A DNA stretch of 64,000 bases from Callorhinchus milii. Lineage: Eukaryota. Under the pieces are notes generated by a model. It saw only the letters and a program-made list of their open reading frames with translations. It made no database searches and was not told the DNA's origin. Positions 9,161 to 64,000 of this stretch are shown here, piece by piece. The stretch lies in NCBI RefSeq assembly GCF_018977255.1, contig NW_024704744.1, positions 42,780,001 through 42,844,000 of the forward strand, in the 5' to 3' direction. A program made the position numbers and the translations under genes. The first letter of the stretch is position 1, and every line of letters starts with the position of its first letter.

Positions 9161-9689
9161 AGGGTGGTGAAGTTGCATGAATAAAAAGATAAACAAAACC
9201 GAAAGAGAAACTATTCAAATTGAAACGTTTTATTCTAAGAAACATTTAGGGCAAGAGAAACTCAAATGACTTCTATATTCATGCCAACCTGTCAAGGTTA
9301 TGATATGAACAGATGTACCAATGTCTGCTGTCATAGAAAATTAATTTAGCCCTCAATTTGATAGGTTTTATTAAACTTCAGAAACATTCTGGGAGCAAAT
9401 AGTTTACATATGATAAAGGACTTTACAAAAACACTCGAGGCATTCCACAAGCAACAACAAAGCCCTGTTCAATCTGCATTGTTATATTGCAATCATGTTG
9501 AAAACATCGGAATACAAGTTAACCTTACAGTGCAGAGCACTGGGGCACAGCCAAGGAGACACCATGTAATAAGAGTTAAATTTACAGTCAACTGGGAGAT
9601 TTTAATTCACCAAATAAAAACACGTACAACTGTATTACATTTCTAGGCCAATTAAACAGTAAGAAAACTTTAAACGACTGATCTGGAAA

Positions 9690-16149: not shown

Positions 16150-16930
16150 CCGGGGGTATATGTGAAGACATTTACTGACCTGTGGTGAGTCTCGGGCCCA
16201 CCTCCCCGAAGGGTGAAGGCTCCATCTTGAGATATTTCTGCGGGGAGGCGGCGGCCTGGCTCAGGGGCGTGCACCGCCTCCTCTTGGGGGACTGGGAGGA
16301 CGGGCTCATCAGAGGGTCGAAATCGATAGTCCTTTTCAGGGTGGCTCCACAGGCCATGGCGACGGTGGGCGGGTGAGTGCGGGTCGAGGGGCTCTGGTGC
16401 GGTCAGGAAAGGAGCGAGTCCCGGGGTCGAGCTCGTCTCACACAGGCGTCGCCGGCTCCGACACGGGAGGCTCTCCGTAGGGTTTCAGTCGCCGGCTCCG
16501 CGTCTCTCGGCTTCTCTCTCCCGCTGGGACCGCTCTGTCCCTGTAATACCCCCCTCGGTCGATGCCCTAACTCGCCGCGGTGGTGCCTGCGCGGAGCTCG
16601 GAGCGGTCCTCTCCCGATTAACGAGCCGATGGAGTCGGATTGCTCTTCTCCCCCTCCGCCGCCTGAACCCTCGCACCGTTATGGCGGACCCGGCCACAAT
16701 AAACAACGCCAGCCTCGCTCCCGTCCCACGACACGCCCCCTCCGCCCGCACCGCGCATGCGCGGGACCGGCCGGGCCCGCGCGGCGCACTCTGGGGGCTG
16801 CAGTTCCCTCGTGCGCTTCAGCAGCGGGAGGCGGCGGGCGGGCAAACTACGCTTCCCAGGGCGCCCCGCGGCGACTTCCGATTGCTGAATTTGAACTCTT
16901 CCCACTCGCCCCCACTCATTGGTGAATTCA
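16150..16930 (-). promoter_or_regulatory. CpG-island promoter and 5' UTR of AKIRIN2
   Basis: The only strongly GC- and CpG-rich segment in the window. Contains an NRF1 palindrome GCGCATGCGC (16753-16762), a ZNF143/THAP11-type ACTACGCTTCCCA (16846-16858), an ETS ACTTCCG (16874-16880), several GC boxes, a YY1-like ATGGCGG (16681) and ATTGG near 16918. Confidence 0.85.
16180..16357 (-). CDS. AKIRIN2: Akirin-2 coding exon 1 (178 nt)
   Basis: Translates [59 protein letters not shown], the Akirin-2 N-terminus with the PKRRRC nuclear localisation motif. Kozak context gccATGG; phase-1 donor G|gtcagt. Confidence 0.97.
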
Positions 16931-19166: not shown

Positions 19167-20429
19167 CCCAAAATTCAATGGGATAGGTGAGAGAAGGAGA
19201 GGATGAAACAACTAAAGAAACAGAGGTCAGGTGAATGTCCAAGTGTGAACTTTTAAAAAGCTCCACTGCAGATCAGGCAGACTGAGACAGGTTAGCTGTC
19301 CTCCAATTTTCAGACCTTGAGAAAGAATAAGCTAGAATGAAATACATCTTGATTTCATCAAAGTGAGGAATAATGATATAATGAAAAAAGACACCAATCT
19401 TCTATTTTGATGTTTATTGTAATATTTTCCCATTTATTGATCAAGTGTTGGACCACAAAGAAAAAATGCTGTTACACTATAATTACAAATAGTGTGAATG
19501 AATGATCCTCCTCCTCACCCCATGACATCACACCTCTGTACACTTGTGCTCTGACAGCAACGCTGAAATAAAATGTGCTTTTCACTCCGTGTTTCTCCCC
19601 TTTCTTTCCATTCCTCTCTCGAAGGCATTGACTCAAGCTTGGATATTGTTCCACGGGGACCAGAAAGCATCTGTGCCTTGCGCCCAAGTTTTCATTCTTC
19701 ACTTTGTGAGTGCAGACAGTGTATGTTAACAGGCTAATAGTAGGGGATTGGGAACATCACAAATGAGGCTAATTCCAGTCAAAATATACAGTCAATTTGC
19801 TTTACAGTATATTCTGTGAAGCGCTTTGAGGGATCTTGAAGACATGAGAAGGTGCTATATCAAATACAAGGATTATTATTGAATGGCAGTGAAAAGTGGG
19901 ATGACTTCTCACTTCCCTTAAGGCACTGGGGCCAATTACAGCTACTCCCAACATTGCCCTGAGATCAATTAACTCAGCACAGGCTAAGGATTAAATCTGG
20001 GGTCTCCAGTCTCCATGGCTCACTGGGACACCACATGGTGCATTTGCCAACTGAATAATGAAAGGCCCAATTTTTTAATGTAAGATCATATCTCAATGGA
20101 CTTCCCACTTGGCTGATCTAACCTTTAGATTGAAATGGAAAATTGCACCCATTCTTAAGGGTCATTTGGCTAGTAGATGGTCATGGCAGCAAATTAAAAT
20201 GTGAAACAAGCAGTCAGGTCCAGCATATCGCATTGCCTTTAAGACCGTGCAGAATTTTAGAAAATTCAAAAATGTAGTCCTAATTTAGAAGCAATTTTTC
20301 CGTACGTTTTTCAAGAACTCTGGAGAATGAGTTTTCCAACTGATGGTCTTTATTGGGGGAACTGGGGACTGAGCTATTGAGAGCAGTAACCCCATGTTTT
20401 AAGTAGTTCTTTGTCCCTTATTTCAGCAT

Positions 20430-20530
20430 AAACCTATTGGATCGCTCACTATGAACACGGTCTCCATGGTAACCCACATCATGACATCAGGTTATATTAT
20501 GATGTGTGATGGTCTCCATAGTAACTTAGC
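20430..20530 (+). promoter_or_regulatory. Putative SPACA1 proximal promoter with two RFX X-boxes and a CRE-like site
   Basis: GTCTCCATGGTAAC (20460-20473) and GTCTCCATAGTAAC (20512-20525) fit the X-box consensus GTNRCC(N0-3)RGYAAC with one mismatch each. TGACATCA at 20482-20489; ATTGG at 20436-20440. The X-boxes lie about 150-210 bp upstream of the ATG. Confidence 0.6.
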
Positions 20531-20671
20531 AATCTATTTCTTCTCCCTCCCCCCACTCCCCATTTCACATGGTGCCAAACTCTCACCGCATACTAAAGAA
20601 ATGGCAATTTATGGTGTCTGGCTTCCTCATTGACGAACTTCCAGCACGTTCATGGTTTGTCCTTGCGGGCA

Positions 20672-20774
20672 ATGTCACTGAATTATAAAATCATCTTAAG
20701 TGGTTTTCTGTTATTCTTCCTCTCCCCTGCTGGCGCAAACGACCCGGAGTCACCACAAAACAAGACAAATTCAA
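20672..20774 (+). CDS. SPACA1: SPACA1-like coding exon 1 (signal peptide, 103 nt)
   Basis: MSLNYKIILSGFLLFFLSPAGA-NDPESPQNKTNS has a basic n-region, hydrophobic core and A-G-A cleavage motif. Strong donor AA|gtaagt in phase 1, compatible with the next exon. Assigned by structure and phase, not by strong homology. Confidence 0.72.
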
Positions 20775-21904
20775 GTAAGTTCATTCACGCCGATTGCTAA
20801 TATGGTAATAAAGTTTCATTTAGTGGACATTACTACCAATTATTTAACATTAAAATATATAAAAGCAAAATAAATGCGAATGAGCTATAAGAACTGGGTT
20901 TCATATACTATTACAAGGCGTAGAATGTTCTTCTTTAGAGTGTAGAAAGTTTACAATGTTCAGAATAACCAAAGCAGCAAGGTGCTCAAACATATATGAT
21001 AAAAAAATTGTAATGCAAAATGAAGGCCATGTGATTTGAAACTATCCCAAAGGTGCAAGAAAATGCAGTTATATGCGTATTCCTCCTCCCTGTTCCAAAG
21101 CACTAATTTCATTTGCAAACAGATTTGGGAACTTCTAGAAAAATAAAATCATAGAATGTTTACAGCATGTCGGAAGCCATTCATTCCATTCTACCTGTGC
21201 TGGTACCAGCTCTCTGCTGGAGCCATCCTATCTCATTGAGGCATTCTGCAAGCTTCTCAATGTATGCATAGAATTACAGGTACATAGTATGATACAGCAC
21301 TTAAATAGGCCATGTGGCCCGATTATTCTATAAGTAACGTATAACACATTTGCCATGCTGTTGTTGAGGCAGAAACTATAAATTCTTCTAAAAGGGTAAT
21401 AGATGCTTAAAACAAGATAAATATTTAACAGTTTGTTTTGTGAGTAGGAGAGAATGATTAGATTAGATCCCTCATGTATAGAAAATCATACAGGCTTGAT
21501 GGGCCAAATGGCCTGTTTCTTTTACTGCAAAACTCTATATTTTATGAGAACAAGACCAAACATGAACATTTTGTCAAATGCAAATTAATTAAAAGTATAT
21601 TTATGGATTCAAACAATCCTTGTTCCTTCTCCGCCAAGATAGGAAAGCCAGATACTGTATAGCCAAATCCAGACCTTGCACAAAATACAAGTCAAGTTCT
21701 ACCAACAGTAAGGTCCATTAAAGATTTTGTATCCTATAGAACTGATCATAATTGGGTGCCCCTTGATGCATCATTCTGCTCTCGGTTACAGTTCTAATAA
21801 AGTGAGGCAAAACTAACAAGCAGTAATTTTAAGAAAAAGATTCTTCTCTCCCCAAAAACGGATTGCAGTGTAAAACACAATTCTCATTATTCGGTAATAA
21901 CTGG

Positions 21905-22608
21905 CCACAACTGGCACCGCCTTCCATCACCTCCGGAATGTCACCAGACTACGGCACTACCTCACCCCTCACGTTGCTGAAACTCTGGTCCACGCCTTCA
22001 TCACCTCAAGGCTGGACTATGGGAACTCTCTCCTCGCCGGCCTTCCCGGCACCTCCCTCCACAAGCTGCAGGTCATTCAGAACTCTGCAGCTCGTGTACT
22101 GTCCCGCACCAGGACCACATCACTCCCACCCTCGCTCGCCTCCACTGGCTCCCCATCCCCCAGAGGATTGATTTCAAGATCCTCATCCTCACCTACAAGG
22201 CCATTCACGGCCTTGGTCTCTCCTACCTCTCCGACCTACTATCCCCCTACCTACCCGCCCGTACCCTCCGTTCCTCTGACTCCGGTCTACTCCACGTCCC
22301 CCGCCCCAACCGCCCTACCATCGGTGGCCGGGCCTTCAGCCTCTCAGCCCCGAGGCTCTGGAACTCTATCGCCCAGTGCCTTCGCCGCCTCCTTCCTTTC
22401 CTCCTTCAAGGCCGGTCTCAAGACCTTTCTCTTCAACCGTGCCTTCAGCTCCCCTCTCAACTCTCTACCCCCTCCTCGCTCCCTCCCTTCCCTCCCCTCA
22501 CCCTGACCATTTCCCCCCTGCTCGGGTCCTGACCCAACTGTACAGCGCCTTGGGACATCCTCCCGACGTGAAAGGCGCTCAATAAATGGAATCTTGTTGT
22601 TGTTGTTG
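21905..22608 (+). mobile_element. L2-clade LINE 3' fragment (copy at ~54497-55184)
   Basis: Encodes LVHAFITSRLDYGNSLL...LQVIQNSAARV...LHWLP-type residues; C-rich 3' UTR and (TTG)n tail. Confidence 0.88.
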
Positions 22609-22677
22609 TATTCTTCGATCAGATAGTGAGTGTGATTTAGCCAGCTATTTTTGTTTTTAAAATTGTTTTTAAAGAAA

Positions 22678-22994
22678 GAGTGCAGTAATAATAATAATAA
22701 TCCTTGCATTCGATATAGTGCTTTTCACATCTTCTCGAAGTCTCAAAGCGCTTCACAAAATAGACTGTAAAGTGAATTGACCATATATTTGTGGGCGAAA
22801 CGCGGCAGCCAATTGCGCACAGCAATGTCCCACAAACAGTCGTGGATTGAAAATGACCAATTTATTATTGTTTTGTTTTGGAGGATTATTATTAGGTGTG
22901 TGGAGTAAGGAAACTTGCCCAAGGTTTCGCCCGGCCTGGAATTGAACCCAGGTGTCTCGCTTGCAAGGCGAGTGCTCTAACCACTGAACTACAG
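22678..22994 (-). mobile_element. tRNA-derived SINE with TGC anticodon-like loop (other copies ~27415-27800, 50165-50310, 53070-53279, 59975-60355 on +; 55255-55563 on -)
   Basis: Head gtagttcagtggttagagcactcgccttgcaagcgag...ggttcaattcc with A and B boxes, then aaaccttgggcaagtttccttactcc, and a 3' tail shared with the Deu-SINEs. Confidence 0.8.
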
Positions 22995-25900
22995 TATTCT
23001 TCTTCTCCCCCTTCTCCCAAATTCAATGAATCAAAGTTTTAAATCACTAACAAAATCAGTTTAAGAAAATCTTCCCAGCAACAATCACTGAAATGATTCG
23101 CTTTAATGTTTTCATCAGCCCAAGTTAGTCGATATGTGAATGTGGAATATACTACTGAGGGAGACAATGGGAGGTAGATGTGTCAGAAGAGGATTAAATA
23201 GCTGTTTGGTGAAGAAATAAAAAGAATGTTCCTGCATTTGAGATCTAATTTTTTCCGTCAGGAGGACGCCTTAAAGTACTTCACAGGATACACTGTGAAG
23301 TGTAGTGACTGTGTAATTTGTAGGCAAAATCAATTGAAGAGGAATGCTAGTTAGAAAAGTATAGGATTTTGTTGACTGGCTGCCTAGCCAGAGCACTCTG
23401 TGTCACATGGTGTATAGCTGTCTCATTGTAGGACAAGTTACAGTTACAATTTGGTCCCTCTCCCCCCCATCACTGTACTTCCTTCAGGGAAAAAAACCTT
23501 TTTTTCATAACAGATTGCCCTACCCACTGTCTTTGTTCTCTCCCTCAGACTCCAGGTCCTGTCCAGGGTTCATTTCTTTCCTGATTGCTATTGGGAGGAT
23601 GGGATGGCTCCTGTCACTATGCCTGCTTTTGTCTGACTACGTTGTGGATGAGTTAGCTAAGGTGACTGGGAGGACTGAAATCTCCCATCTGGTGTGCATT
23701 TAAGGACCCTAATGGCCCCTATGTTTTTTATATAATTCCACAATTATCCATTATCTATTCCCACAAGGTTAGATTGTGTTTTAAATGAGGAGCAGTCATT
23801 GCAGGATACAGCGAATCCTCTCTATATGAGGCTCTATATGTCAAGTTGAATTGTACTGCAGTTTGCTAGCAGATCGAGAGGAGGATATGATTGAGGTTTT
23901 TTTTAAATGCTAAGAAGCATGGATAATGCAGATGTGAGCAGACCAGTTGTTTTGAACTTTGATCACAGAACTGGAGTATAAGAGTATTAACGAGCAAGCC
24001 TCAAATGAGACCAGAAAGTAGATCTTTTCGCCCCACAGACAGGTGAACATATATAATAGATTCCCAGCAAAAGCAATTCATAGTGTTTCTTTGAAAAGAG
24101 CTGGATAAACATCTGTTTTAGCATAGGATTGAAGATTGCACAGATAAGGAAATGCTCCATGGAACACATACACTGCTGGGACCATGGATGAGTAAATCAA
24201 GGAATGCAGAATTGTGAGTGTAGATCTTAAAATTGGATTAATATTCTGAGTTTTGCTGTTTACACCGAAGGGGTTAGGAAAAAATTCTGCAGTACCGCAA
24301 TCTCTCTCTTGTCCTGTGCATTGCAGACTAATGATATAGGCCATATTTTAGCTTCCTAAATTTTACAGAGATGCTGCTGTAAAATGTAATATTTCTTACT
24401 GAAATTTGAAAAGGTGGGATATATGCTGAGTACCCACCTTCTATGGATCGGTTAAAAACGTTCCCTCCAAGCTATCCTATAAAACACGACAGAAGTCTAT
24501 TAATGTTTTTTTGCTGACACAGTAGTACTGAAAATACCGGTCTGTGACAATAACAAGAAGGAAAAAAAAAGCTGTAAATACAGGATATGGCCTCTTCCTC
24601 TTCAGTGTCATGTTATGTTGCTTCACTGAAGTCATTCTAAAATTCCCTTCTTTCCTCTGTGTATGCGTTGTGTGGGTGTGTATGTGCTGTGCAGCTGTGT
24701 ACACATTGGCGTGCATTATAGCATTTTCTCACACTTTAATTTGGTCACAAGACTAAGTGGATCCAAACGCCCACACAACTTGTTCTCATTCACTTACTAG
24801 TATATGGCAATTATATATCTGGATCAGCACTTCTCCCACATTACTAACATTGTGCATATAGTTTGGAAGTGTGGACAAGTGCACTGGGGCAAATGTCAAC
24901 CTTGAAAATGGCATTCGTAGGAATATGAATGTTTCTGGTAGATGTGTTGCTCCTAGTTAAGTACAGATTCTCCTTAACAGTCAGAAATTTGCATGGAAAA
25001 GAATAAAAGGAATTACTTAAAACATCCCCCCCAAAAAATATATATATTTAGGCACAAATAAGTGCTGCTAATAATTGAAAACAAACACAGTTAGTGCATT
25101 GGTAAGTACAACTAATGAAAATTGTAGGTGCTGAGCTTGATACAAAAATAATCTAACATAAACGAGAACGTTGAAAATACTAAATCCGTGCAAGGGTGTA
25201 TTTAAGAGGCAGAACAAGCACTCATGCTTGATCAATGCATAATACTGACTGAGCTCCCCCTGGATCCCTAATTTGTCATAAGTCAAACGTTCACATGTGT
25301 GTGCACTCACAGCTGTTGTTTGTTAAATTGTTTGTATCACAAGCGATGGGCATTGCAGCCAACTGCATTCCTCTATTATAAGGAAAAACGTCAAAATATC
25401 CACAAAAACATAATGGGAGCAATCGTAAAGTTACCAACCCCTGATAGGTAAATGTGACATTGAGCCTTTGAGCTCACAATCTTGGGCCGACACCCCATGT
25501 CAGCACTGCATGCTGCACTGCATATAGGTGCAGACCTTCAGATGGGACATTACACTGAGACTTGACAGTTCAAGAAATAATAAAGATCTCAAGGCACTAT
25601 TTCAAAGAGGAACAGGATGTCTTGACCAATATTTCTAATTCACTAAAAATAGTCCTTAAAGACACTGCTGTCTTTAAAATGTCGGGATAGCACATTAGCG
25701 TCTGCTTTTACAAAAAACAATAGTCACTACATTTCAAAGTAACTCAGTGTGAACTGTTTTCGGACATTTTCCTGTGTTAAGGTCCTGTATAATGGGATGG
25801 AGGTGCCCACATGAGGGAAATGAGGCAGAAGAGAAAATAAGTTGCAGCAATATTTATTTTACGGAAATTCCAGTGGTAATTCAATGGCCCGTGTAAGTGA

Positions 25901-26072
25901 ATGAGAATAAACCATTACTTTAAATGTTATGCAAGTTGTCATAAACCATTAAACTCACTTCAGCATTAGTATGTCATCTGAGATTCAAAGGTAAAAAAGT
26001 ATAATGGTAAGTTTGACACTTGGTTTACTTGTAGTCTAAAAAATAATTTCAAATTAAAATATTTTGTTTTAG

Positions 26073-26135
26073 ATGCCACAGCAGACTTTGATGCTGAAGA
26101 ATTTGAGGAGACAGGACCCTGTTCAGTAACATGTG
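26073..26135 (+). CDS. SPACA1: SPACA1-like coding exon 2 (63 nt)
   Basis: Acceptor attttgttttag|; (N)ATADFDAEEFEETGPCSVTC(G); donor G|gtaaat. Matches the mammalian SPACA1 ...EFGMCTVTCG segment as I recall it. Confidence 0.85.
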
Positions 26136-28739
26136 GTAAATATATTGAAGCATTTTTGACCATTCTCCTTCCCCCCACCCCCCTTGCTCCTCCATCCCCA
26201 CTTCAAGTGCTGTGTCAAATGCTGTGTGAAGTCCTTTTACATGAAAGGTGTTATATAAATGTGAATTGTTGTACTCGATTGAATTTAATACTCACTCACT
26301 GTATAACGCCACAATTGTTATCTACATATACTGTATTTGTATGTACAATACACCTTATAGGAGTCAATGTGGCGTCAAGCCAAATGCTGCATCGCCTGAA
26401 TCAAGGTCGGTTTTAACAGGCTGGTCAAAATTCAACCAATTATGTGGATTTAAATTTTCTCTGCCTGGTAAAACTAGAATTTATTTGGGGGAGGGACCTT
26501 TTAGTGGCTTGCAAATGCATTTTAAGAGTATAAAATTGATATTGAATAAATAGTTCATTTGTTTGTATTTGTGCTGGGGTGTGAGGGGTGGGGGGGGCAG
26601 TCTGTGCTGAATTAGTCTGTTACCAGCTGGGAAGATAGGCGTGGGGTGAGCGTAGAGAGACCACTGATGGACACAGATTGTGCGGCATTCTTCCAGTAAC
26701 CATCAGCCAAATCACCTCGAAGGAGCTCTGATTCAGTTGAGCTGATGTTCCTGTGAATTATTGAGTTAATTTCTTAATTAGGGAATCTCATTAAGAATTA
26801 CTGCAAAATTCACCCAATTACCAGTACCTTCATAAATTAAGGTTTAATATACAAGATAAAATAGCTGTTGGTTAAAACAGAATTGGTTTTGAGACTGACC
26901 ATAAAAATCTAGATACAAATTTCTAGCCTATGAGATTTCACTTTTCGCTGAAGAAATGTACGCAGGCTAAACACGTTCTCAGTGGAATTCTGTAATAGTC
27001 TGGGGCTGGAATTAATTCTCATCTTGTTGAGAGCAATTAGGCACATATTTGTTTCAAAATAATTACCAGACATTTGGCGAGAAGCCATTATTTCAATCCT
27101 CATGAAGGAACACAAAAAATAAATTAGTTGTGATTGTATTTATACGGACATTGTACTGTTTGGTACAGACCTAAGATCTTTAGACATGAAGATCTGTACA
27201 GACATGAGGTCCTTACCCTGATACTTATACAGGAATGTAGTCATATACATGTCTAGGAAAAACATTATGGTCCAACTAGCCAGTGCCAAAATTAACAAAA
27301 TAATCACTCAATATCTGTCAAACCCCCAAATTTGACATCATTGTCTAGGCTGATGCTCCAATGCAGTGCTGGAGTGTGCTGCATTTTTGAACATTCGAAA
27401 CACTCTTGTGCTTGTGCAGTCTTAGCATATTGGTTAGAACATTTGCCTCGCAAGCAAGAGGACTTGGGTTCGATTCCCGGGCAGTGCAAAACATTAGGCA
27501 AGTTTCTGTACTCCATACGCCTCTGTTTACCTAGCAGTAAGTAGGAACCCGGTAGTTAGTCAATTGACGGATCGCTTTTCTGGGAAGGATTGATACCCTC
27601 AAATTTTTTTTTAAAAAAATAATAATTTGGTCACGCAATTCATTACTGTTTGTGAGACAGTGCTGTGTGCGATTGGCTGCTGCATTTTGCCCACAAAATA
27701 TACAGTTAATTCACTTCACAGTTTATTCTGTGAAGCACTTTAAGATGTATCGAAGACGTGATAAGGCACTATATGAAATGCACAGATTATTATTATGATA
27801 TTATGATATAGTCACCCAGATATAGTCACTGAATTCTTTTCCCTTGGAGTCATGATATATCAGGAGTTTACTGTATTCTTATAATTTGATTTTTTCACCA
27901 AATAGCTATCTAACAGTTGTATGCATTTGTGAACACAGCCCGCCTGCCTCCTTTGTCTCTCTGGTTAATCTATCTTACAAATTCACAACTTTCTGTGCAA
28001 AATAATTAATTCTGCATTGTCTGTTCGCATTCCTTCTTTTGAGCTCAGCTCCAAGAAGATCCTGCTTACCTCCCCCCTCCCCCACCCCACCCTTCCCATA
28101 GGATAGTTACTAGTTGTTCAAGGTATACAAATGTGGCACTCTCAGTCTGGTTTGGATACTCTTATGCTGATGGGTTTCTGCATTCAGCAGACACCCGACT
28201 AACCAAACAAAATGCTACATAGTTTATGAAATCTCTAAGCCACAGATACAACTCCTTGGTATAAAAAGGGATTTATTAAAGTGAGGCAGGCTTCTGCATG
28301 CTGTGTTAGGAAAACTATGTTTTGAGAAAGACTTCTCAATGCATGTCAATCCTTACATGAAATCTCGTTGAAATAGACCAAACAGACTTTCTGTCCTTAC
28401 CCCTGGAAAACATTTGGTCTCTGCTCAAAGCCTCACTGTAATCACATAGCTCAGACTGGGAACTCATTAAATGGGCCTGATCCATCGCTTACTATTCTGT
28501 GGTATTGTGAAACACAGAGTTTACTCAGTAGCTTGGTTTGGCTGTGATTCTGTGAATCAGCAGTCAAATCCCATTGATTTGGGGATGGAGTTCTATAAAG
28601 CAGGGATACAGCAGCTGAAAGAATGTACAGTACTTTATATACTGTGTTATCTTTCCCATTGTTACGTTGTGGGTATTGTGTATCTGAATATTAATACTGT
28701 AACTTGCAAAGTTTAATAACGTACAGCAACAAATGAAGG

Positions 28740-28930
28740 AAAACGCTCAGTTGGTTAAGCCATTGCCTGGAGTTTAATTGAGCCAAAGAGACTATGTTCT
28801 GTCTTCAATTCCCAGGCTGCACTGAATTAAGTTGATGATCTCAGTGGGAATCACAATATACTGTCCTACAATTACCTCAGCGTTTCTGGCCTAGGGAAGG
28901 GGAAAATCAACCAAGGTTCTTGCTCCACAG
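28740..28930 (+). mobile_element. Old SINE-like family, unassigned (related pieces ~19900-20055 on -; ~26598-26650, 30688-30750, 35405-35535 on +)
   Basis: Recurrent gctcagttggt...tgagcca.acagac...gtctgtgctga.tta..tgatctcag...ctacaatt..cctcag. motif. Confidence 0.5.
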
Positions 28931-29685
28931 AATTTTGAACTAATTATCTCGGCTGACACTCCGATGCAGTGTTGGGGGAGTCCTGCATTGTCGGAGTCTC
29001 GGAAGTACTGTCCATCAAATGAGACATTAAAGCAAGGTCCCATCTGTCTCTTCAAGGTGACATTAAAAATCCCATGACACTATTTGAAAAGAGAAGGAAT
29101 CCCACAACTAAATTTGGTCATTCATATCAAAGCTGTTTGGGGGACATTGCTGTGTGCAAACTGGCTGCTCTAAAAATACACGGTCAATTTATTCACTTGA
29201 AAGAAAAACTCTATGAAGTGCTTTGAAACATTTCAATGTGATAAGAGAAATGCAAGGATTATTACTGAGTATAATTGACCTAGTTAATGCTAGCCAGGGA
29301 GCTGCACTGCCATCATAACCTGTCATACTGTATCTGAAAAAGGAGGCCAGCACATTGGCTCAGATCCTAGTAGTAATCACAATTTATCATCTTGCTGGAT
29401 CTTGTGAAAAATACAACAGTAGGATTTTACACCCTTTATTTACTAATACTGATGAACTTTTTGTCTGCACTTTTTATTGGAAATCCCATTATAATTTTGC
29501 ATTAATCCTGGGAAATCCTGATTTAGTTGCACTGAGGCTGTAGGACACAGGCTATGGTATGGCCCAGACATTCGTGAACCATAAACAGTGTGTATCAGCT
29601 CAGTGATTGGAAAACCGCCACTCAATATTACATTGTAGCAGCACAATCTATCTTAAAAAGTTAACCTTGGCTTGTTTGTGACCAG

Positions 29686-29787
29686 GTATTGGAGTGAAAG
29701 AGGTTTTGCTGACTAAAGGATGTCCAGGCAAAGAAAGCAAATGTGTTGTACGAGTTGAAGAATGCAGAGGGCCTGTTAAATGTGGCT
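29686..29787 (+). CDS. SPACA1: SPACA1-like coding exon 3 (102 nt)
   Basis: Acceptor ttgtttgtgaccag|; (G)[33 protein letters not shown]; donor T|gtgagt. Very close to human SPACA1 [35 protein letters not shown] as recalled, and syntenic with AKIRIN2. Confidence 0.93.
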
Positions 29788-31317
29788 GTGAGTACCTTTT
29801 ATGAACAAAAATAATTTTGTAGGCAAAGTAGATTTATCCAAGTTGTAAAATCAGTATTGTATTTGCTATTGCTCATTCACAGATGCTATTCAAAGATGTA
29901 CATTTTTATTGGAAATCCCATGTACAAAATATCCCTGAATAACCTAATTTATGTATTTCACAAAATGCCTTTGCATTAGAGAGATGGGTGAGTATAAAAA
30001 AAGAATAACATTTGGATTTGTGGCTGATACATGTACCGCAAGAAACATTGGTTTTACCATCCAAATCCATAAAATTAGCAAATATTACAAATAAGTTTGA
30101 TAAGAATAAATAAGAGGTGTTTAAAATAAAATAAAGTCGATCTATTGGCTACAAGAAACTGAAGACCATTGAGGCCATCCTTCATCACATTGATCAGATC
30201 CCGATTCATGGCATTGTCACCCTCCTCCTGTCTCAGTTCTAAATCCACACTCCTTTCTCCTGTTGAATCAGAAATCTTTCCCATTCATTTTAAATTCTTT
30301 AACTAATTCAGCATTCATTGTGTTATAGGCATTCATCTACAAATATGCAGTCACTACACAGTAAATCCTGTGAAGTACGTTGAAACATTTCAACAACATG
30401 ATAACACACTATATCAAATGCAAGGATTATTATTATTTTAATTGGCATATGTCCATGCCTATAAATTTGACATTTTATAACAGATTGATAATAATCACAG
30501 ATTCATAATTAAAACATGCAGTCTTTTATGAGATGGTACATTTTTTGCCTCATTATTTCTCAATTTAAATACACACAGTCGCATCATGTTATAATACTGT
30601 ATATCCAGTGAAGCACTTTGAGATGTCTGGACTATGTGATAAGGTACAACATTAAATGCAAGCAATATTATTAATTTGTATTTTACATGCTCAGTTGGCT
30701 AAACTACCACCTAGAATAAAAACTGAGACATACAGACCCAGAAGGATTAGTATGTGCATTTCTTATCTTTTATTCTGATTTGTTATGTCGATTCTTTAGC
30801 TTCTAATCATGACTCCTTGGCTGTACATAAAGAATCTCTCCACTCTAATTTTCCCTATAATATTAAAAGCTTCAACAAAGCTCCCTTCCCATCTTAGCCT
30901 TTTACTTCAAAAGAACACAATTGATATTCCAAGGCCTGTCATTCAAGCTGTGATTAAAGACACATCATCATTCTTGCTGCCCATGTTTAAATCCTTTGCA
31001 GTGCTTCTATGTATTTCATGGTATGGTGTCCAAAAATAATACTCCAAGTATGGTTTTACCAATTCTTTCCAGAGTGTCGTGTCTTTGAATTTATACTTTG
31101 TAAATAAGTCTACTTTTACACTTACATTAAAATGGCTATGCAACCACCATTTTACAGCATTAGAACAAACTTATTGCTTCGGTCAACTTGCACACCCAAA
31201 TTGTTTCCCTGTCATTTGAGTTACTGGTAAACCCATTATTATGGAATTATGTAATCATCAATTATTTAAAAATCCATAATGCCGACACACTGGGATTCTC
31301 CATTTTGAGTTGAGTGG

Positions 31318-53279: not shown

Positions 53280-53309
53280 NNNNNNNNNNNNNNNNNNNNN
53301 NNNNNNNNN
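53280..53309. other. Assembly gap (30 N)
   Basis: Run of N. The left contig ends inside a SINE. Confidence 0.99.
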
Positions 53310-56300
53310 GCGCCAGGACTCCCAAGGCAGTCTACACGGCGATCCCACGTCCGGGAGGAAGAGTACGGCGAAGAGTACCGTCATTCACGCCGATTGCTAA
53401 TATGGTAATAAAGTTTCATTTAGTGGACATTACTACCAATTATTTAACATTAAAATATATAAAAGCAAAATAAATGCGAATGAGCTATAAGAACTGGGTT
53501 TCATATACTATTAAGGCGTAGAATGTTCTTCTTTAGAGTGTAGAAAGTTTACAATGTTCAGAATAACCAAAGCAGCAAGGTGCTCAAACATATATGATAA
53601 AAAAATTGTAATGCAAAATGAAGGCCATGTGATTTGAAACTATCCCAAAGGTGCAAGAAAATGCAGTTATATGCGTATTCCTCCTCCCTGTTCCAAAGCA
53701 CTAATTTCATTTGCAAACAGATTTGGGAACTTCTAGAAAAATAAAATCATAGAATGTTTACAGCATGTCGGAAGCCATTCATTCCATTCTACCTGTGCTG
53801 GTACCAGCTCTCTGCTGGAGCCATCCTATCTCATTGAGGCATTCTGCAAGCTTCTCAATGTATGCATAGTTACAGGTACATAGTATGATACAGCACTTAA
53901 ATAGGCCATGTGGCCCGATTATTCTATAAGTAACGTATAACACATTTGCCATGCTGTTGTTGAGGCAGAAACTATAAATTCTTCTAAAAGGGTAATAGAT
54001 GCTTAAAACAAGATAAATATTTAACAGTTTGTTTTGTGAGTAGGAGAGAATGATTAGATTAGATCCCTCATGTATAGAAAATCATACAGGCTTGATGGGC
54101 CAAATGGCCTGTTTCTTTTCTGCAAACTCTATATTTTATGAGAACAAGACCAAACATGAACATTTTGTCAAATGCAAATTAATTAAAAGTATATTATGGA
54201 TTCAAACAATCCTTGTTCCTTCTCCGCCAAGATAGGAAAGCCAGATACTGTATAGCCAAATCCAGACCTTGCACAAATACAAGTCAATTTACCAACAGTA
54301 AGGTCCATTAAAGATTTGTATCCTATAGAACTGATCATAATTGGGTGCCCCTTGATGCATCATTCTGCTCTCGGTTACATTCTAATAAAGTGAGGCAAAA
54401 CTAACAAGCAGTAATTTTAAGAAAAAATTCTTCTCTCCCCAAAAACGGATTGCAGTGTAAAACACAATTCTCATTATTCGGTAATAACTGGCCACACTGC
54501 ACCGCCTTCCATCACCTCCGGAATGTCACCAGACTACGGCACTACTCACCCCTCACGTTGCTGAAACTCTGGTCCACGCCTTCATCACCTCAAGGCTGGA
54601 CTATGGAACTCTCTCCTCGCCGGCCTTCCCGGCACCTCCTCCACAAGCTGCAGGTCATTCAGAACTCTGCAGCTCGTGTACTGTCCCGCACCAGGACCAC
54701 ATCACTCCCACCCTCGCTCGCCTCCACTGGCTCCCCATCCCCAGAGGATTGATTTCAAGATCCTCATCCTCACCTACAGGCCATTCACGGCCTTGGTCTC
54801 TCCTACCTCTCCGACCTACTATCCCCCTACCTACCCCCCGTACCCTCCGTTCCTCTGACTCCGGTCTACTCCACGTCCCCCCGCCCCAACCGCCCTACCA
54901 TCGTGGCCGGGCCTTCAGCCTCTCAGCCCCAGGCTCTGGAACTCTATCGCCCATGCCTTCGCCGCCTCCTCCCTTTCCTCCTTCAAGGCCGGTCTCAAGA
55001 CCTTTCTCTTCAACCGTGCCTTCAGCTCCCCTCTCAACTCTCTACCCCCTCCTCGCTCCCTCCCTTCCCTCCCTCACCCTGACCATTTCCCCCCTGCTCG
55101 GGTCCTGACCCAACTGTACCAGCGCCTTGGACATCCTCCCGACGTGAAAGGCGCTCAATAAATGGAATCTTGTTGTTGTTGTTGTATTCTTCGATCAGAT
55201 AGTGAGTGTGATTTAGCCAGCTATTTTTGTTTTTAAAATGTTTTTAAAGAAAGAGTGCAGTAATAATAATAATAATCCTGCATTCGATATAGTGCTTTTC
55301 ACATCTTCTCGAAGTCTCAAACGCTTCACAAAATAGACTGTAAAGTGAATTGACCATATATTTGTGGGCGAAACGCGCAGCCAATTGCGCACAGCAATGT
55401 CCCACAAACAGTCGTGGATTGAAAATGACCAATTTATTATTGTTTTGTTTTGGAAGGATTATTATTAGTGTGTGGATAAGGAAACTTGCCCAAGGTTTCG
55501 CCCTGCCTGGAATTGAACCCAGGTGCTCGCTGCAAGGCGAGTGCTCTAACCACTGAACTACAGTATTCTTCTTCTCCCCCTTCTCCCAAATTCAATGAAT
55601 CAAAGTTTAAATCACTAACAAAATCAGTTAAGAAAATCTTCCCAGCAACAATCACTGAAATGATTCGCTTTAATGTTTTCATCAGCCCAAGTTAGTCGAT
55701 ATGTGAATGTGCAGTATACTACTGAGGGAGACAATGGGAGGTAGTTGTTTCAGAAGAGGATTAAATAGCTGTTTGGTGAAGAAATAAAAAGAATGTTCCT
55801 GCATTTGAGATCTAATTTTTTCCGTCAGGAGGACGCCTTAAAGTACTTCACAGGATACACTGTGAAGTGTAGTGACTGTGTAATTGTAGGCAAAATCAAT
55901 TGAAGAGGAATGCTAGTTAGAAAAGTATAGGATTTTGTTGACTGGCTGCCTAGCCAGAGCACTCTGTGTCACATGGTGTATAGCTGTCTCATTGTAGGAC
56001 AAGTTACAGTTACAATTTGGTCCCTCTCCCCCCCATCACTGTACTTCCTTCAGGGAAAAAACCTTTTTTCATAACAGATTGCCCTACCCACTGTCTTTGT
56101 TCTCTCCCTCAGACTCCAGGTCCTGTCCAGGGTTCATTTCTTTCCTGATTGCTATTGGGAGGATGGGATGGCTCCTGTCACTATGCCTGCTTTTGTCCTG
56201 ACTACGTTGTGGATGAGTTAGCTAAGGTGACTGGGAGGACTGAAATCTCCCATCTGGTGTGCATTTAAGGACCCTAATGGCCCCTATTTTTTTATATAAT

Positions 56301-58630
56301 TCCACAATTATCCATTATCTATTCCCACAAGGTTAGATTGTGTTTTAAATGAGGACAGTCATTGCAGGATACAGCGAATCCTCTCTATATGAGGCTCTAT
56401 ATGTCAAGTTGAATTGTACTGCAGTTTGCTAGCAGATCGAGAGGAGGATATGATTGAGGTTTTTTTTAAATGCTAAGAAGCATGGATAATGCAGATGTGA
56501 GCAGACCAGTTGTTTTGAACTTTGATCACAAACTGGAGTATAAGAGTATTAACGAGCAAGCCTCAAATGAGACCAGAAAGTAGATCTTTTCGCCCCACAG
56601 ACAGGTGAACATATATAATAGATTCCCAGCAAAAGCAATTCATAGTGTTTCTTTGAAAAGAGCTGGATAAACATCTGTTTTAGCATAGGATTGAAGATTG
56701 CACAGATAAGGAAATGCTCCATGGAACACATACACTGCTGGGACCATGGATGAGTAAATCAAGGAATGCAGAATTGTGAGTGTAGATCTTAAAATTGGAT
56801 TAATATTCTGAGTTTGCTGTTTACACCGAAGGGTTAGGAAAAAATTCTGCAGTACCGCAATCTCTCTCTTTCCTGTGCATTGCAGACTAATGATATAGGC
56901 CATATTTTAGCTTCCTAAATTTTACAGAGATGCTGCTGTAAAATGTAATATTTCTTACTGAAATTTGAAAAGGTGGGATATATGCTGAGTACCCACCTTC
57001 TATGGATCGGTTAAAAACGTTCCCTCCAAGCTATCCTATAAAACACGACAGAAGTCTATTAATGTTTTTTTGCTGACACAGTAGTACTGAAAATACCGGT
57101 CTGTGACAATAACAAGAAGGAAAAAAAAAAGCTGTAAATACAGGATATGCCTCTTCCTCTTCAGTGTCATGTTATGTTGCTTCACTGAAGTCATTCTAAA
57201 AATTCCCTTCTTTCCTCTGTGTATGCGTTGTGTGGGTGTGTATGTGCTGTGCAGCTGTGTACACATTGGCGTGCATTATAGCATTTTCTCACACTTTAAT
57301 TTGGTCACAAGACTAAGTGGATCCAAACGCCCACACAACTTGTTCTCATTCACTTACTAGTATATGGCAATTATATATCTGGATCAGCACTTCTCCCACA
57401 TTACTAACATTGTGCATATAGTTTGGAAGTGTGGACAAGTGCACTGGGGCAAATGTCAACCTTGAAAATGGCATTCGTAGGAATATGAATGTTTCTGGTA
57501 GATGTGTTGCTCCTAGTTAAGTACAGATTCTCCTTAACAGTCAGAAATTTGCATGGAAAAGAATAAAAGGAATTACTTAAAACATCCCCCCCAAAAAATA
57601 TATATATTTAGGCACAAATAAGTGCTGCTAATAATTGAAAACAAACACAGTTAGTGCATTGGTAAGTACAACTAATGAAAATTGTAGGTGCTGAGCTTGA
57701 TACAAAAATAATCTAACATAAACGAGAACGTTGAAAATACTAAATCCGTGCAAGGGTGTATTTAAGAGGCAGAACAAGCACTCATGCTTGATCAATGCAT
57801 AATACTGACTGAGCTCCCCCTGGATCCCTAATTTGTCATAAGTCAAACGTTCACATGTGTGTGCACTCACAGCTGTTGTTTGTTAAATTGTTTGTATCAC
57901 AAGCGATGGGCATTGCAGCCAACTGCATTCCTCTATTATAAGGAAAAACGTCAAAATATCCACAAAAACATAATGGGAGCAATCGTAAAGTTACCAACCC
58001 CTGATAGGTAAATGTGACATGAGCCTTTGAGCTCACAATCTTGGGCCGACACCCCATGTCAGCACTGCATGCTGCACTGCATATAGGTGCAGACCTTCAG
58101 ATGGGACATTACACTGAGACTTGACAGTTCAAGAAATAATAAAGATCTCAAGGCACTATTTCAAAGAGGAACAGGATGTCTTGACCAATATTTCTAATTC
58201 ACTAAAAATAGTCCTTAAAGACACTGCTGTCTTTAAAATGTCGGGATAGCACATTAGCGTCTGCTTTTACAAAAACAATAGTCACTACATTTCAAAGTAA
58301 CTCAGTGTGAACTGTTTTCGGACATTTTCCTGTGTTAAGGTCCTGTATAATGGGATGGAGGTGCCCACATGAGGGAAATGAGGCAGAAGAGAAAATAAGT
58401 TGCAGCAATATTTATTTTACGGAAATTCCAGTGGTAATTCAATGGCCCGTGTAAGTGAATGAGAATAAACCATTACTTTAAATGTTATGCAAGTTGTCAT
58501 AAACCATTAAACTCACTTCAGCATTAGTATGTCATCTGAGATTCAAAGGTAAAAAAGTATAATGGTAAGTTTGACACTTGGTTTACTTGTAGTCTAAAAA
58601 ATAATTTCAAATTAAAATATTTTGTTTTAG

Positions 58631-58693
58631 ATGCCACAGCAGACTTTGATGCTGAAGAATTTGAGGAGACAGGACCCTGTTCAGTAACATGTG
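58631..58693 (+). CDS. SPACA1: Second copy of SPACA1-like exon 2 (within the post-gap duplication)
   Basis: Identical to 26073-26135 including splice sites. May be an assembly duplicate. Confidence 0.55.
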
Positions 58694-61600
58694 GTAAATA
58701 TATTGAAGCATTTTTGACCATTCTCCTTCCCCCCACCCCCCTTGCTCCTCCATCCCCACTTCAAGTGCTGTGTCAAATGCTGTGTGAAGTCCTTTTACAT
58801 GAAAGGTGTTATATAAATGTGAATTGTTGTACTCGATTGAATTTAATACTCACTCACTGTATAACGCCACAATTGTTATCTACATATACTGTATTTGTAT
58901 GTACAATACACCTTATAGAAGTCAATGTGGCGTCAAGCCAAATGCTGCATCGCCTGAATCAAGGTCGGTTTTAACAGGCTGGTCAAAATTCAACCAATTA
59001 TGTGGATTTAAATTTTCTCTGCCTGGTAAAACTAGAATTTATTTGGGGGAGGGACCTTTTAGTGGCTTGCAAATGCATTTTAAGAGTATAAAATTGATAT
59101 TGAATAAATAGTTCATTTGTTTGTATTTGTGCTGGGGTGTGAGGGGTGGGGGGGGCAGTCTGTGCTGAATTAGTCTGTTACCAGCTGGGAAGATAGGGGT
59201 GGGGTGAGCGTAGAGAGACCACTGATGGACACAGATTGTGCGGCATTCTTCCAGTAACCATCAGCCAAATCACCTCGAAGGAGCTCTGATTCAGTTGAGC
59301 TGATGTTCCTGTGAATTATTGAGTTAATTTCTTAATTAGGGAATCTCATTAAGAATTACTGCAAAATTCACCCAATTACCAGTACCTTCATAAATTAAGG
59401 TTTAATATACAAGATAAAATAGCTGTTGGTTAAAACAGAATTGGTTTTGAGACTGACCATAAAAATCTAGATACAAATTTCTAGCCTATGAGATTTCACT
59501 TTTCGCTGAAGAAATGTACGCAGGCTAAACACGTTCTCAGTGGAATTCTGTAATAGTCTGGGGCTGGAATTAATTCTCATCTTGTTGAGAGCAATTAGGC
59601 ACATATTTGTTTCAAAATAATTACCAGACATTTGGCGAGAAGCCATTATTTCAATCCTCATGAAGGAACACAAAAAATAAATTAGTTGTGATTGTATTTA
59701 TACGGACATTGTACTGTTTGGTACAGACCTAAGATCTTTAGACATGAAGATCTGTACAGACATGAGGTCCTTACCCTGATACTTATACAGGAATGTAGTC
59801 ATATACATGTCTAGGAAAAACATTATGGTCCAACTAGCCAGTGCCAAAATTAACAAAATAATCACTCAATATCTGTCAAACCCCCAAATTTGACATCATT
59901 GTCTAGGCTGATGCTCCAATGCAGTGCTGGAGTGTGCTGCATTTTTGAACATTCGAAACACTCTTGTGCTTGTGCAGTCTTAGCATATTGGTTAGAACAT
60001 TTGCCTCGCAAGCAAGAGGACTTGGGTTCGATTCCCGGGCAGTGCAAAACATTAGGCAAGTTTCTGTACTCCATACGCCTCTGTTTACCTAGCAGTAAGT
60101 AGGAACCCGGTAGTTAGTCAATTGACGGATCGCTTTTCTGGGAAGGATTGATACCCTCAAATTTTTTTTAAAAAAAATAATAATTTGGTCACGCAATTCA
60201 TTACTGTTTGTGAGACAGTGCTGTGTGCGATTGGCTGCTGCATTTTGCCCACAAAATATACAGTTAATTCACTTCACAGTTTATTCTGTGAAGCACTTTA
60301 AGATGTATCGAAGACGTGATAAGGCACTATATGAAATGCACAGATTATTATTATGATATTATGATATAGTCACCCAGATATAGTCACTGAATTCTTTTCC
60401 CTTGGAGTCATGATATATCAGGAGTTTACTGTATTCTTATAATTTGATTTTTTCACCAAATAGCTATCTAACAGTTGTATGCATTTGTGAACACAGCCCG
60501 CCTGCCTCCTTTGTCTCTCTGGTTAATCTATCCCACAAATTCACAACTTTCTGTGCAAAATAATTAATTCTGCATTGTCTGTTCGCATTCCTTCTTTTGA
60601 GCTCAGCTCCAAGAAGATCCTGCTTACCTCCCCCCTCCCCCACCCCACCCTTCCCATAGGATAGTTACTAGTTGTTCAAGGTATACAAATGTGGCACTCT
60701 CAGTCTGGTTTGGATACTCTTATGCTGATGGGTTTCTGCATTCAGCAGACACCCGACTAACCAAACAAAATGCTACATAGTTTATGAAATCTCTAAGCCA
60801 CAGATACAACTCCTTGGTATAAAAAGGGATTTATTAAAGTGAGGCAGGCTTCTGCATGCTGTGTTAGGAAAACTATGTTTTGAGAAAGACTTCTCAATGC
60901 ATGTCAATCCTTACATGAAATCTCGTTGAAATAGACCAAACAGACTTTCTGTCCTTACCCCTGGAAAACATTTGGTCTCTGCTCAAAGCCTCACTGTAAT
61001 CACATAGCTCAGACTGGGAACTCATTAAATGGGCCTGATCCATCGCTTACTATTCTGTGGTATTGTGAAACACAGAGTTTACTCAGTAGCTTGGTTTGGC
61101 TGTGATTCTGTGAATCAGCAGTCAAATCCCATTGATTTGGGGATGGAGTTCTATAAAGCAGGGATACAGCAGCTGAAAGAATGTACAGTACTTTATATAC
61201 TGTGTTATCTTTCCCATTGTTACGTTGTGGGTATTGTGTATCTGAATATTAATACTGTAACTTGCAAAGTTTAATAACATACAGCAACAAATGAAGGAAA
61301 ACGCTCAGTTGGTTAAGCCATTGCCTGGAGTTTAATTGAGCCAAAGAGACTATGTTCCGTCTTCAATTCCCAGGCTGCACTGAATTAAGTTGATGATCTC
61401 AGTGGGAATCACAATATACTGTCCTACAATTACCTCAGCGTTTCTGGCCTAGGGAAGGGGAAAATCAACCAAGGTTCTTGCTCCACAGAATTTTGAACTA
61501 ATTATCTCGGCTGACACTCCGATGCAGTGTTGGGGGAGTCCTGCATTGTCGGAGTCTCGGAAGTACTGTCCATCAAATGAGACATTAAAGCAAGGTCCCA

Positions 61601-62244
61601 TCTGTCTCTTCAAGGTGACATTAAAAATCCCATGACACTATTTGAAAAGAGAAGGAATCCCACAACTAAATTTGGTCATTCATATCAAAGCTGTTTGGGG
61701 GACATTGCTGTGTGCAAACTGGCTGCTCTAAAAATACACGGTCAATTTATTCACTTGAAAGAAAAACTCTATGAAGTGCTTTGAAACATTTCAATGTGAT
61801 AAGAGAAATGCAAGGATTATTACTGAGTATAATTGACCTAGTTAATGCTAGCCAGGGAGCTGCACTGCCATCATAACCTGTCATACTGTATCTGAAAAAG
61901 GAGGCCAGCACATTGGCTCAGATCCTAGTAGTAATCACAATTTATCATCTTGCTGGATCTTGTGAAAAATACAACAGTAGGATTTTACACCCTTTATTTA
62001 CTAATACTGATGAACTTTTTGTCTGCACTTTTTATTGGAAATCCCATTATAATTTTGCATTAATCCTGGGAAATCCTGATTTAGTTGCACTTAGGCTGTA
62101 GGACACAGGCTATGGTATGGCCCAGACATTCGTGAACCATAAACAGTGTGTATCAGCTCAGTGATTGGAAAACCGCCACTCAATATTACATTGTAGCAGC
62201 ACAATCTTATCTTAAAAAGTTAACCTTGGCTTGTTTGTGACCAG

Positions 62245-62346
62245 GTATTGGAGTGAAAGAGGTTTTGCTGACTAAAGGATGTCCAGGCAAAGAAAGCAAA
62301 TGTGTTGTACGAGTTGAAGAATGCAGAGGGCCTGTTAAATGTGGCT
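62245..62346 (+). CDS. SPACA1: Second copy of SPACA1-like exon 3 (within the post-gap duplication)
   Basis: Identical to 29686-29787 including splice sites. May be an assembly duplicate. Confidence 0.55.
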
Positions 62347-64000
62347 GTGAGTACCTTTTATGAACAAAAATAATTTTGTAGGCAAAGTAGATTTATCCAA
62401 GTTGTAAAATCAGTATTGTATTTGCTATTGCTCATTCACAGATGCTATTCAAAGATGTACATTTTTATTGGAAATCCCATGTACTAAATATCCCTGAATA
62501 ACCTAATTTATGTATTTCACAAAATGCCTTTGCAATAGAGAGATGGGTGAGTATAAAAAAAGAATAACATTTGGATTTGTGGCTGATACATGTACCGCAA
62601 GAAACATTGGTTTTACCATCCAAATCCATAAAATTAGCAAATATTACAAATAAGTTTGATAAGAATAAATAAGAGGTGTTTAAAATAAAATAAAGTTGAT
62701 CTATTGGCTACAAGAAACTGAAGACCATTGAGGCCATCCTTCATCATATTGATCAGATCCCGATTCATGGCATTGTCACCCTCCTCCTGTCTCAGTTCTA
62801 AATCCACACTCCTTTCTCCTGTTGAATCAGAAATCTTTCCCATTCATTTTAAATTCTTTAACTAATTCAGCATTCATTGTGTTATAGGCATTCATCTACA
62901 AATATGCAGTCACTACACAGTAAATCCTGTGAAGTACGTTGAAACATTTCAACAACATGATAACACACTATATCAAATGCAAGGATTATTATTATTTTCA
63001 TTGGCATATGTCCATGCCTATAAATTTGACATTTTATAACAGATTGATAATAATCACAGATTCATAATTAAAACATGCAGTCTTTTATGAGATGGTACAT
63101 TTTTTGCCTCATTATTTCTCAATTTAAATACACACAGTCACATCATGTTATAATACTGTATATCCAGTGAAGCACTTTGAGATGTCTGGACTATGTGATA
63201 AGGTACAACATTAAATGCAAGCAATATTATTAATTTGTATTTTACATGCTCAGTTGGCTAAACTACCACCTAGAATAAAAACTGAGACATACAGACCCAG
63301 AAGGATTAGTATGTGCATTTCTTATCTTTTATTCTGATTTGTTATGTCGATTCTTTAGCTTCTAATCATGACTCCTTGGCTGTACATAAAGAATCTCTCC
63401 ACTCTAATTTTCCCTATAATATTAAAAGCTTCAACAAAGCTCCCTTCCCATCTTAGCCTTTTACTTCAAAAGAACACAATTGATATTCCAAGGCCTGTCA
63501 TTCAAGCTGTGATTAAAGACACATCATCATTCTTGCTGCCCATGTTTAAATCCTTTGCAGTGCTTCTATGTATTTCATGGTATGGTGTCCAAAAATAATA
63601 CTCCAAGTATGGTTTTACCAATTCTTTCCAGAGTGTCGTGTCTTTGAATTTATACTTTGTAAATAAGTCTACTTTTACACTTACATTAAAATGGCTATGC
63701 AACCACCATTTTACAGCATTAGAACAAACTTATTGCTTCGGTCAACTTGCACACCCAAATTGTTTCCCTGTCATTTGAGTTACTGGTAAACCCATTATTA
63801 TGGAATTATGTAATCATCAATTATTTAAAAATCCATAATGCCGACACACTGGGATTCTCCATTTTGAGTTGAGTGGTGTCAGCCTGGCACAGCTGGTAGC
63901 ACTCACATCTGTGAGTCAGAAGGTTGTTGTTTCAATGCCCATTCTCATAATCTAGGTTGAGTCTCCAGCAAAGTGCTGGGGGAGTGTTGCATTGTGCGAA

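Follow-up and report, generated by a model that had tools for sequence, protein, structure and literature searches.

An intact SPACA1 gene next to AKIRIN2 in the cartilaginous fish Callorhinchus milii

SPACA1 of mouse and human resides in the acrosomal membrane and is required for the acrosome to become anchored and flattened on the nucleus; its loss results in globozoospermia (PMC9126569). The mammalian protein associates with ACTL7A, CCIN, ACTRT1, and cylicin-1 (PMC10994659). It also contains an immunoglobulin (Ig)-like domain similar to that of SPACA6, a member of the IST superfamily (IZUMO1/SPACA6/TMEM95), which is defined by a bundle of four helices at the N-terminus that bears paired CXXC motifs (PMC9482655). 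Some genes that act in sperm or at the sperm-egg interface have been kept in chondrichthyans and lost in teleosts, including ACR (PMC13762310) and ZPBP/Sp38 and ZP1 (PMC1845163); teleosts keep Izumo1, Spaca6, and Tmem81 (bioRxiv 10.1101/2023.07.27.550750). The gene described here is a SPACA1 of the cartilaginous fish Callorhinchus milii. It begins within a stretch of 64,000 nucleotides (nt), referred to as the window, whose positions are counted from NW_024704744.1:42780001 (window = contig 42780001-42844000). The genome assembly searched comprises 0.99 Gb.

The locus is best read as an intact, seven-exon SPACA1 ortholog that encodes a predicted type I glycoprotein, likely to lie in the sperm acrosomal membrane and to help anchor the acrosome to the nucleus; we give this reading a probability of roughly 0.78. 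The first three coding exons are on the forward strand of the window. Exon 1 (20672..20774, 103 nt) specifies a predicted signal peptide, a short linker, and one N-glycosylation sequon, and aligns with the N-termini of the catshark and bamboo-shark proteins. Exon 2 (26073..26135, 63 nt), which is bounded by splice sites and fits the spacing and bin depth of an RNA-like contig discussed below, completes a second sequon and provides the first two cysteines of a conserved core. Exon 3 (29686..29787, 102 nt), identified by splice sites, protein matches, and the same contig, carries four cysteines of this core. The AG acceptors and GT donors are in place, and the introns that follow these exons are all in phase 1. 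Joining the three exons yields exactly the 89 amino acids (aa) that an earlier sequence-only reading of this DNA had predicted; six of them are cysteines, and the two sequons fall at residues 30 and 35.

Exons 4-7 lie beyond the window on the same strand. They were located by tblastn of bat and stingray proteins across the window and 160 kb of flanking sequence, with boundaries placed at canonical splice sites. Exons 4 (contig 42864425-42864531, or 84425-84531 in window count) and 5 (contig 42887094-42887229, 107094-107229) encode the Ig-like domain, exon 6 (contig 42891298-42891427, 111298-111427) the stalk and transmembrane helix, and a predicted exon 7 (contig 42895654-42896521, 115654-116521) a proline-rich tail and the stop codon. 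Exon 7 is based on its likeness to the tails of ray and skate proteins. A complete tail of this type is present on contigs of ~1.4 kb in two Logan records of the skate cluster, which suggests that it is transcribed there. The full model consists of seven coding exons with 1,509 bases and 502 aa, has zero internal stops, and has GT-AG boundaries at 6/6 introns.

Evidence for splicing comes from four runs guessed to be RNA, none of them recorded as RNA or labelled by tissue, which were compared with window positions 20300-30000. In run X1, a single 468-letter contig (depth 10.4) holds 20580-20774 at letters 274-468 and 29685-29788 at letters 108-211, and the spacing between the exon 1 and exon 3 parts is what a 63-nt exon 2 needs. 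The exon-2 piece itself lies outside the matches listed; the bin with most of exon 2 has a depth of 1.9, equal to 10.4 x 59/324. Beyond exon 3 the contig continues for 107 letters, a length that would suit exon 4. The lack of exon cover in runs X3 and X4 was not taken as evidence. Exon 1 is joined to exon 3 in one probable RNA contig of unlabelled tissue, and SPACA1 of Callorhinchus milii is an intact, spliced gene. The X1 contig also covers a 5' untranslated part of exon 1 (20580..20671, forward strand), whose upstream limit is the reach of the contig. In the region 20580-20688, this leader contains three out-of-frame ATGs (20601, 20611, and 20652), and two of their short frames overlap the SPACA1 start; translational control by these upstream ATGs is possible.

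Assignment of the locus to SPACA1 begins with exon 3. When its open frame was searched alone, only two candidates came up, a stingray protein without a name and bat SPACA1 (E 1e-10, 82% identity). Each of these homologs carries a precomputed tag for PF27947, the family named SPACA1 in the Atlas. Given the strength of the bat match, the frame is not a chance open reading frame. Over 178-221 aa the 502-aa model shares 74-76% identity with proteins of catshark, bamboo-shark, and skate, and over 154 aa it shares 50% with bat SPACA1; in the reverse direction the catshark protein matched the genome seven times, each time at this locus, the sole such locus found. A gene tree was built from 57 of 58 sequences (one was dropped for gaps) over 130 columns. 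In this tree the bony-vertebrate branch (sturgeons, then coelacanth, amphibians, and amniotes) has a support of 100, and the model stays with the chondrichthyans; since the tree has no outgroup, placement among chondrichthyan groups is not given.

The neighbourhood of the gene agrees with this assignment. The first coding exon of AKIRIN2 (16178..16357, reverse strand, ATG at 16357; match to Akirin-2 in the PDB at E 4.7e-21) lies head to head with SPACA1, the two ATGs being 4,315 bp apart (window 16357-20672) with a GC-rich stretch at 16-18 kb. ORC3 is found on the forward strand at contig 42.756-42.761 Mb and CNR1 on the reverse strand at contig 42909323-42910861, 12.8 kb downstream of SPACA1, giving the order ORC3(+), AKIRIN2(-), SPACA1(+), CNR1(-). 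ORC3-AKIRIN2-SPACA1-CNR1 is the order in human and other mammals as well; AKIRIN2 and SPACA1 lie much farther apart in human. Judged by sequence and position, then, the locus is the SPACA1 ortholog of a cartilaginous fish. The sequence-only reading had named the gene, its block of neighbours, and its cartilaginous-fish source, and all three proposals hold.

That reading had also called the homolog hidden. The gene is real, but the word was too strong, as a SPACA1-like label is already present in public records of Scyliorhinus canicula (XP_038656946.1), Chiloscyllium plagiosum, and Pristis pectinata (XP_051881060.1), and records from two Acipenser species and Latimeria are labelled SPACA1. Orthologs from Leucoraja erinacea (XP_055492017.1), Hemitrygon, Narcine, Mobula, and S. 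torazame are listed as "uncharacterized"; among the ray, skate, and cloudy-catshark orthologs this label is found particularly on those with a long proline-rich tail. No record identical to the Callorhinchus locus was among the 10 matches of the homolog search, which are too few to call the gene unannotated. Several public SPACA1 models are incomplete in this part, with exactly exon 3 missing in Narcine, Acipenser ruthenus, and one unnamed mammal-like record and most of exon 2 missing in horse and zebra, reflecting either recurrent exon skipping or annotation errors.

The product is a predicted type I membrane glycoprotein with a putative signal peptide, a short linker with two sequons, a 43-aa core with six cysteines, an Ig-like domain, one transmembrane helix, and a cytoplasmic tail of ~290 aa. 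A hydropathy peak at 187-207 marks the predicted transmembrane helix, and the structural model of the catshark protein has both an N-terminal and a transmembrane helix. The eight ectodomain cysteines, six in the core (C51, C55, C68, C75, C82, and C88) plus the Ig-like pair (C105 and C150), are kept, together with W90 and W118, in 99-100% of 108-126 aligned residues. With mammalian SPACA1 (PF27947) the model shares these eight cysteines, identity in the core and Ig part, type I topology, and gene neighbourhood. Against 110 eutherian-group records, among them isoforms and three unnamed entries, the model has an average identity of 77.5% for the core, 38.8% for the Ig part, and ~19-23% for the linker, stalk, and transmembrane segment. 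The corresponding values for the core and Ig part are 64% and 25% against Atlantic sturgeon and 63% and 37% against coelacanth.

The fish and mammalian proteins differ at both ends. The linker before the first core cysteine is 50 aa long here, 58 in 4/4 elasmobranchs, and 81-147 in 83/88 eutherian-group records; the mammalian linker is thus much longer, as the sequence-only reading had noted, and the fish linker is not an acidic run. The mammalian tail is ~50 aa and acidic, whereas that of the model is strongly basic, consists of 27% proline, and contains 28 PxxP motifs. Chondrichthyan tails are 137-293 aa long with 20-28% proline and are basic in 7/7 scored (truncated records, such as those of catshark and bamboo-shark, were left out). 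The coelacanth tail (130 aa, 24% proline) is not basic, canonical tetrapod tails are 20-101 aa with 0-12% proline in 11/11 sequences, and sturgeon records are too partial to show the tail type. Because a proline-rich tail is common to chondrichthyans and coelacanth, it is plausibly ancestral. Elasmobranch SPACA1-like records resemble the model most closely, with 80-85% identity over the core and Ig-like part, an N-terminus of the same type, and a proline-rich basic tail where one is present; their tails are shorter (137-187 aa) and their linkers 8 aa longer. A different arrangement is found in the frogs Rhinoderma, Anomaloglossus, and Ranitomeya. Each has at least two "uncharacterized" proteins with a SPACA1-type six-cysteine module and a transmembrane helix, no Ig domain, and tails of 89-531 aa, some of them repetitive; these may be a frog-specific derived family.

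By extension from mouse and human, the Callorhinchus protein would be made in spermatids. The predicted six-cysteine, beta-rich module and the Ig-like domain with its one cysteine pair would face the acrosome lumen, and the predicted single transmembrane helix would be followed by the long, basic, proline-rich tail in the cytoplasm. SPACA1 would then link the sub-acrosomal layer with the inner acrosomal membrane, and in fish it may have a similar place and job by means of a conserved lumenal module and a differing cytoplasmic tail. Since the fish tail is wholly unlike the mammalian one, its cytoplasmic partners are likely to differ from those of mammals. Several points weigh against this account. 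The tail, the side that would face the anchoring layer, cannot be aligned with mammals, which makes the anchoring role an extrapolation, and literature searches, at the level of listings, turned up nothing on where SPACA1 lies or what it does in any fish. The RNA status of run X1 is a guess, and exons 4-7 were not observed in Callorhinchus milii RNA. The contig that connects exon 1 to exon 3 comes from a run without a tissue label and is seen in one of the four runs among the matches listed.

The distribution of SPACA1 bears on both its age and its role. Searching 1.84 billion representatives with a profile yielded 72 matches, of which 21 are named: 4 chondrichthyans, 3 sturgeons, 1 coelacanth, 10 amphibians, platypus, and 2 birds. 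Among the 51 unnamed matches, 50 are closest to an amniote (39-100% identity) and one is a weak match in an unrelated 1,242-aa protein. A separate homolog search, in which 120 of the 198 entries listed are mammals, says nothing on fish. As sharks, sturgeons, coelacanth, and tetrapods all carry SPACA1, these sequences place the gene in the jawed-vertebrate ancestor, the age that the sequence-only reading had proposed. No gar, bowfin, or teleost SPACA1 was recognised among the 72 matches, in which the sturgeon fragments are already at E 2e-9 to 7e-9, so that a diverged gene could escape. Likewise, no bichir, lungfish, or lamprey SPACA1 was recognised among them. Bichir and lungfish have acrosomes. 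Because these acrosome-bearing fishes are also missing from the matches, loss of SPACA1 in teleosts is unproven. Of the groups in the fish survey that the sequence-only reading had suggested, sharks, rays, and sturgeons have the gene, and in gar and teleosts none was recognised among the 72 matches. Retention of SPACA1 in step with the acrosome is consistent with this pattern and unproven.

The pattern is like that of ACR (PMC13762310), with presence in chondrichthyans, sturgeons, and the lobe-finned lineage and none recognised in gar or teleosts; the absence of SPACA1, however, rests on profile matches and not on genomes. The string "SPACA" does not occur in the available text of PMC13762310. 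Table 1 of PMC1845163 may list SPACA1. No paper treating fish SPACA1 was apparent in literature searches at the level of listings, with subscription papers outside their reach.

Beyond its own family, SPACA1 has a predicted layout like that of the ectodomains of TMEM81, IZUMO1, and SPACA6, in which a cysteine-rich beta module is followed by an Ig-like domain and one transmembrane helix. With catshark and gorilla queries, the nearest non-SPACA1 Atlas clusters by language-model features are TMEM81 (score 0.91-0.95), and PF27947 is found on 26% of one 58-member TMEM81 cluster; both observations come from the same source and form one line of evidence. Of two predicted folds, the first (catshark, 11 sequences) has a predicted local distance difference test score (pLDDT) of 60.5 and the second (bamboo-shark, 92 sequences) a pLDDT of 60 overall and 85-91 over residues 121-170, being confident in the Ig part only. 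When the bamboo-shark model was compared with 48,161 chains, IZUMO1 came first (Z 6.2, root-mean-square deviation (rmsd) 3.4 over 83 residues), with unrelated folds scoring equally. In a second structural comparison, IZUMO1 entries took 7 of the top 8 rows (Z 5.9-6.7; best rmsd 2.7 over 76 residues, at Z 6.7). Foldseek gave no match at E<=0.001 for either fold, with SPACA6 appearing weakly. The four-helix bundle that defines the IST superfamily is lacking: just 50 residues, signal peptide included, precede the core, too few for such a bundle. The structural match to IZUMO1 and SPACA6 is weak. Neither predicted model has a helix between the signal peptide and the transmembrane segment, a region of low confidence.

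These likenesses could be taken to mean that SPACA1, though an ortholog, acts in cartilaginous fish chiefly in adhesion at the sperm surface or as an accessory of the fusion complex, as do TMEM81, IZUMO1, and SPACA6, and that anchoring of the acrosome through a short acidic tail is a tetrapod or mammalian specialisation. The TMEM81 and IZUMO1 rankings would suit such a role, as would the concentration of conservation in the outward-facing cysteine core and a tail unrelated to that of mammals. However, unrelated Ig folds reach equal Z-scores (NTB-A, 6.3), the defect known from loss of SPACA1 function in mouse and human is a malformed acrosome (PMC9126569), and the apparent teleost absence of SPACA1, while Izumo1, Spaca6, and Tmem81 stay, fits an acrosome role better. 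We consider a primarily fusion-related function unlikely and retain an acrosomal membrane protein as the preferred reading.

A relationship to TMEM81 by descent is a separate matter. TMEM81 was not recognised among the 72 profile matches. In the genome, two degenerate cysteine-motif patterns (one with 3 matches, the other with 44, of which 43 were translated) returned TSP1-type exons and chance matches, and the Izumo-Ig family PF16706 gave 2 matches, both under the cut-off; neither result is evidence that TMEM81 is absent. The name SPACA1 does not occur in the available main text of the TMEM81 papers PMC11052572 and bioRxiv 10.1101/2023.07.27.550750, and the available text of PMC13319360 holds both names without linking them. 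Paralogy of SPACA1 and TMEM81 is a lead, drawn from model-based scores. Tentatively, and at somewhat less than even odds, SPACA1 may be an ancient TMEM81 paralog that, in the jawed-vertebrate ancestor, was an IZUMO1/SPACA6-type hairpin-plus-Ig protein lacking the helix bundle and carrying a long proline-rich tail. It would have become specialised for the acrosome and, in gars and teleosts, have disappeared together with it, TMEM81 being retained, as in the ACR/TMPRSS12 pair; the tail would later have been swapped for a short one in tetrapods, and Ig-less copies would have arisen in some frogs.

The SPACA1 locus also contains a near-identical repeat of ~32 kb. Window positions 20781-53279 recur, with an identity of 97.3-99.4%, from 53381 to about contig 42864278, which is ~20 kb outside the window, and a 30-N assembly gap (53280..53309) lies between the copies. 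The part of the second copy within the window (53381..64000, forward strand) contains letter-for-letter duplicates of exon 2 (58631..58693) and exon 3 (62245..62346), both on the forward strand. The second copy is without exon 1, and the first ends ~150 bases short of exon 4. At 44334-47617 a 1.64-kb segment is repeated head to tail at 99.5% identity; the first copy of the large repeat has two such units and the second has one. The copies differ by 86 substitutions and 150 gap columns, and the indels pile up at contig ends: 42 bases are missing in the first bin of copy B, and the last 775 columns of copy A are 97.3% identical. The ~70 bases just after the gap match nothing else nearby. Such a pattern is as expected of overlapping contig ends or of two haplotypes joined in tandem, and the repeat is probably a false duplication, an artefact of assembly. 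If it were instead a real tandem duplication, exons 2-3 (165 nt, phase 1-1) might be included two times in one transcript without loss of frame, which would then encode a doubled cysteine module. The exons and splice sites are indeed intact and identical in both copies, which differ by the substitutions and by a 1.64-kb repeat unit in one copy only. Even so, a real duplication is improbable, given that the gap falls exactly between the copies, that gap columns outnumber substitutions and cluster at contig ends, that the post-gap bases are unmatched nearby, and that zero shark or ray homologs examined have a doubled module. A false duplication would be a likely cause of broken annotation at this locus.

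The data refute a reading in which the exons belong to a thrombospondin-type-1 protein, another paralog, or a pseudogene: the exon-2 motif reaches 12.8 bits in Pfam TSP_1, where the cut-off is 21.6, and family profiles show weak similarity to the circumsporozoite TSR (E 0.0013 at best), but the TSP_1 match spans just 13/49 positions, 5/24 homologs give matches that are likewise weak, SPACA1 matches are many orders stronger, and the frame stays open over all 1,509 coding bases, each intron having canonical splice sites. Thus, neither a better match to a TSP1 protein nor disabling downstream mutations, two of the outcomes that the sequence-only reading had named as fatal to it, was found. Pfam scans of the exon frames and homologs gave zero families above cut-off, and PDB sequence searches found no solved relative. 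Elsewhere, the AKIRIN2 and SPACA1 introns contain broken reverse-transcriptase-like (LINE-type) fragments and high-copy short repeats (8078-9245, 21833-23215, 39485-42084, and 54405-55161).

The SPACA1 of Callorhinchus is an ordinary ortholog call, and its shark relatives are already named in public annotation. Its value as a marker is modest: it would date a mammalian globozoospermia gene to the jawed-vertebrate ancestor, and it separates a constrained part, the lumenal cysteine core, from an unconstrained one, the cytoplasmic tail. SPACA1 may also be added to the candidates among acrosome genes lost in teleosts. If the link to TMEM81 is true, a protein that builds the acrosome and the sperm-egg fusion complex would share one ancestral module, which would provide a testable structural handle on a protein that has no solved relative by sequence.

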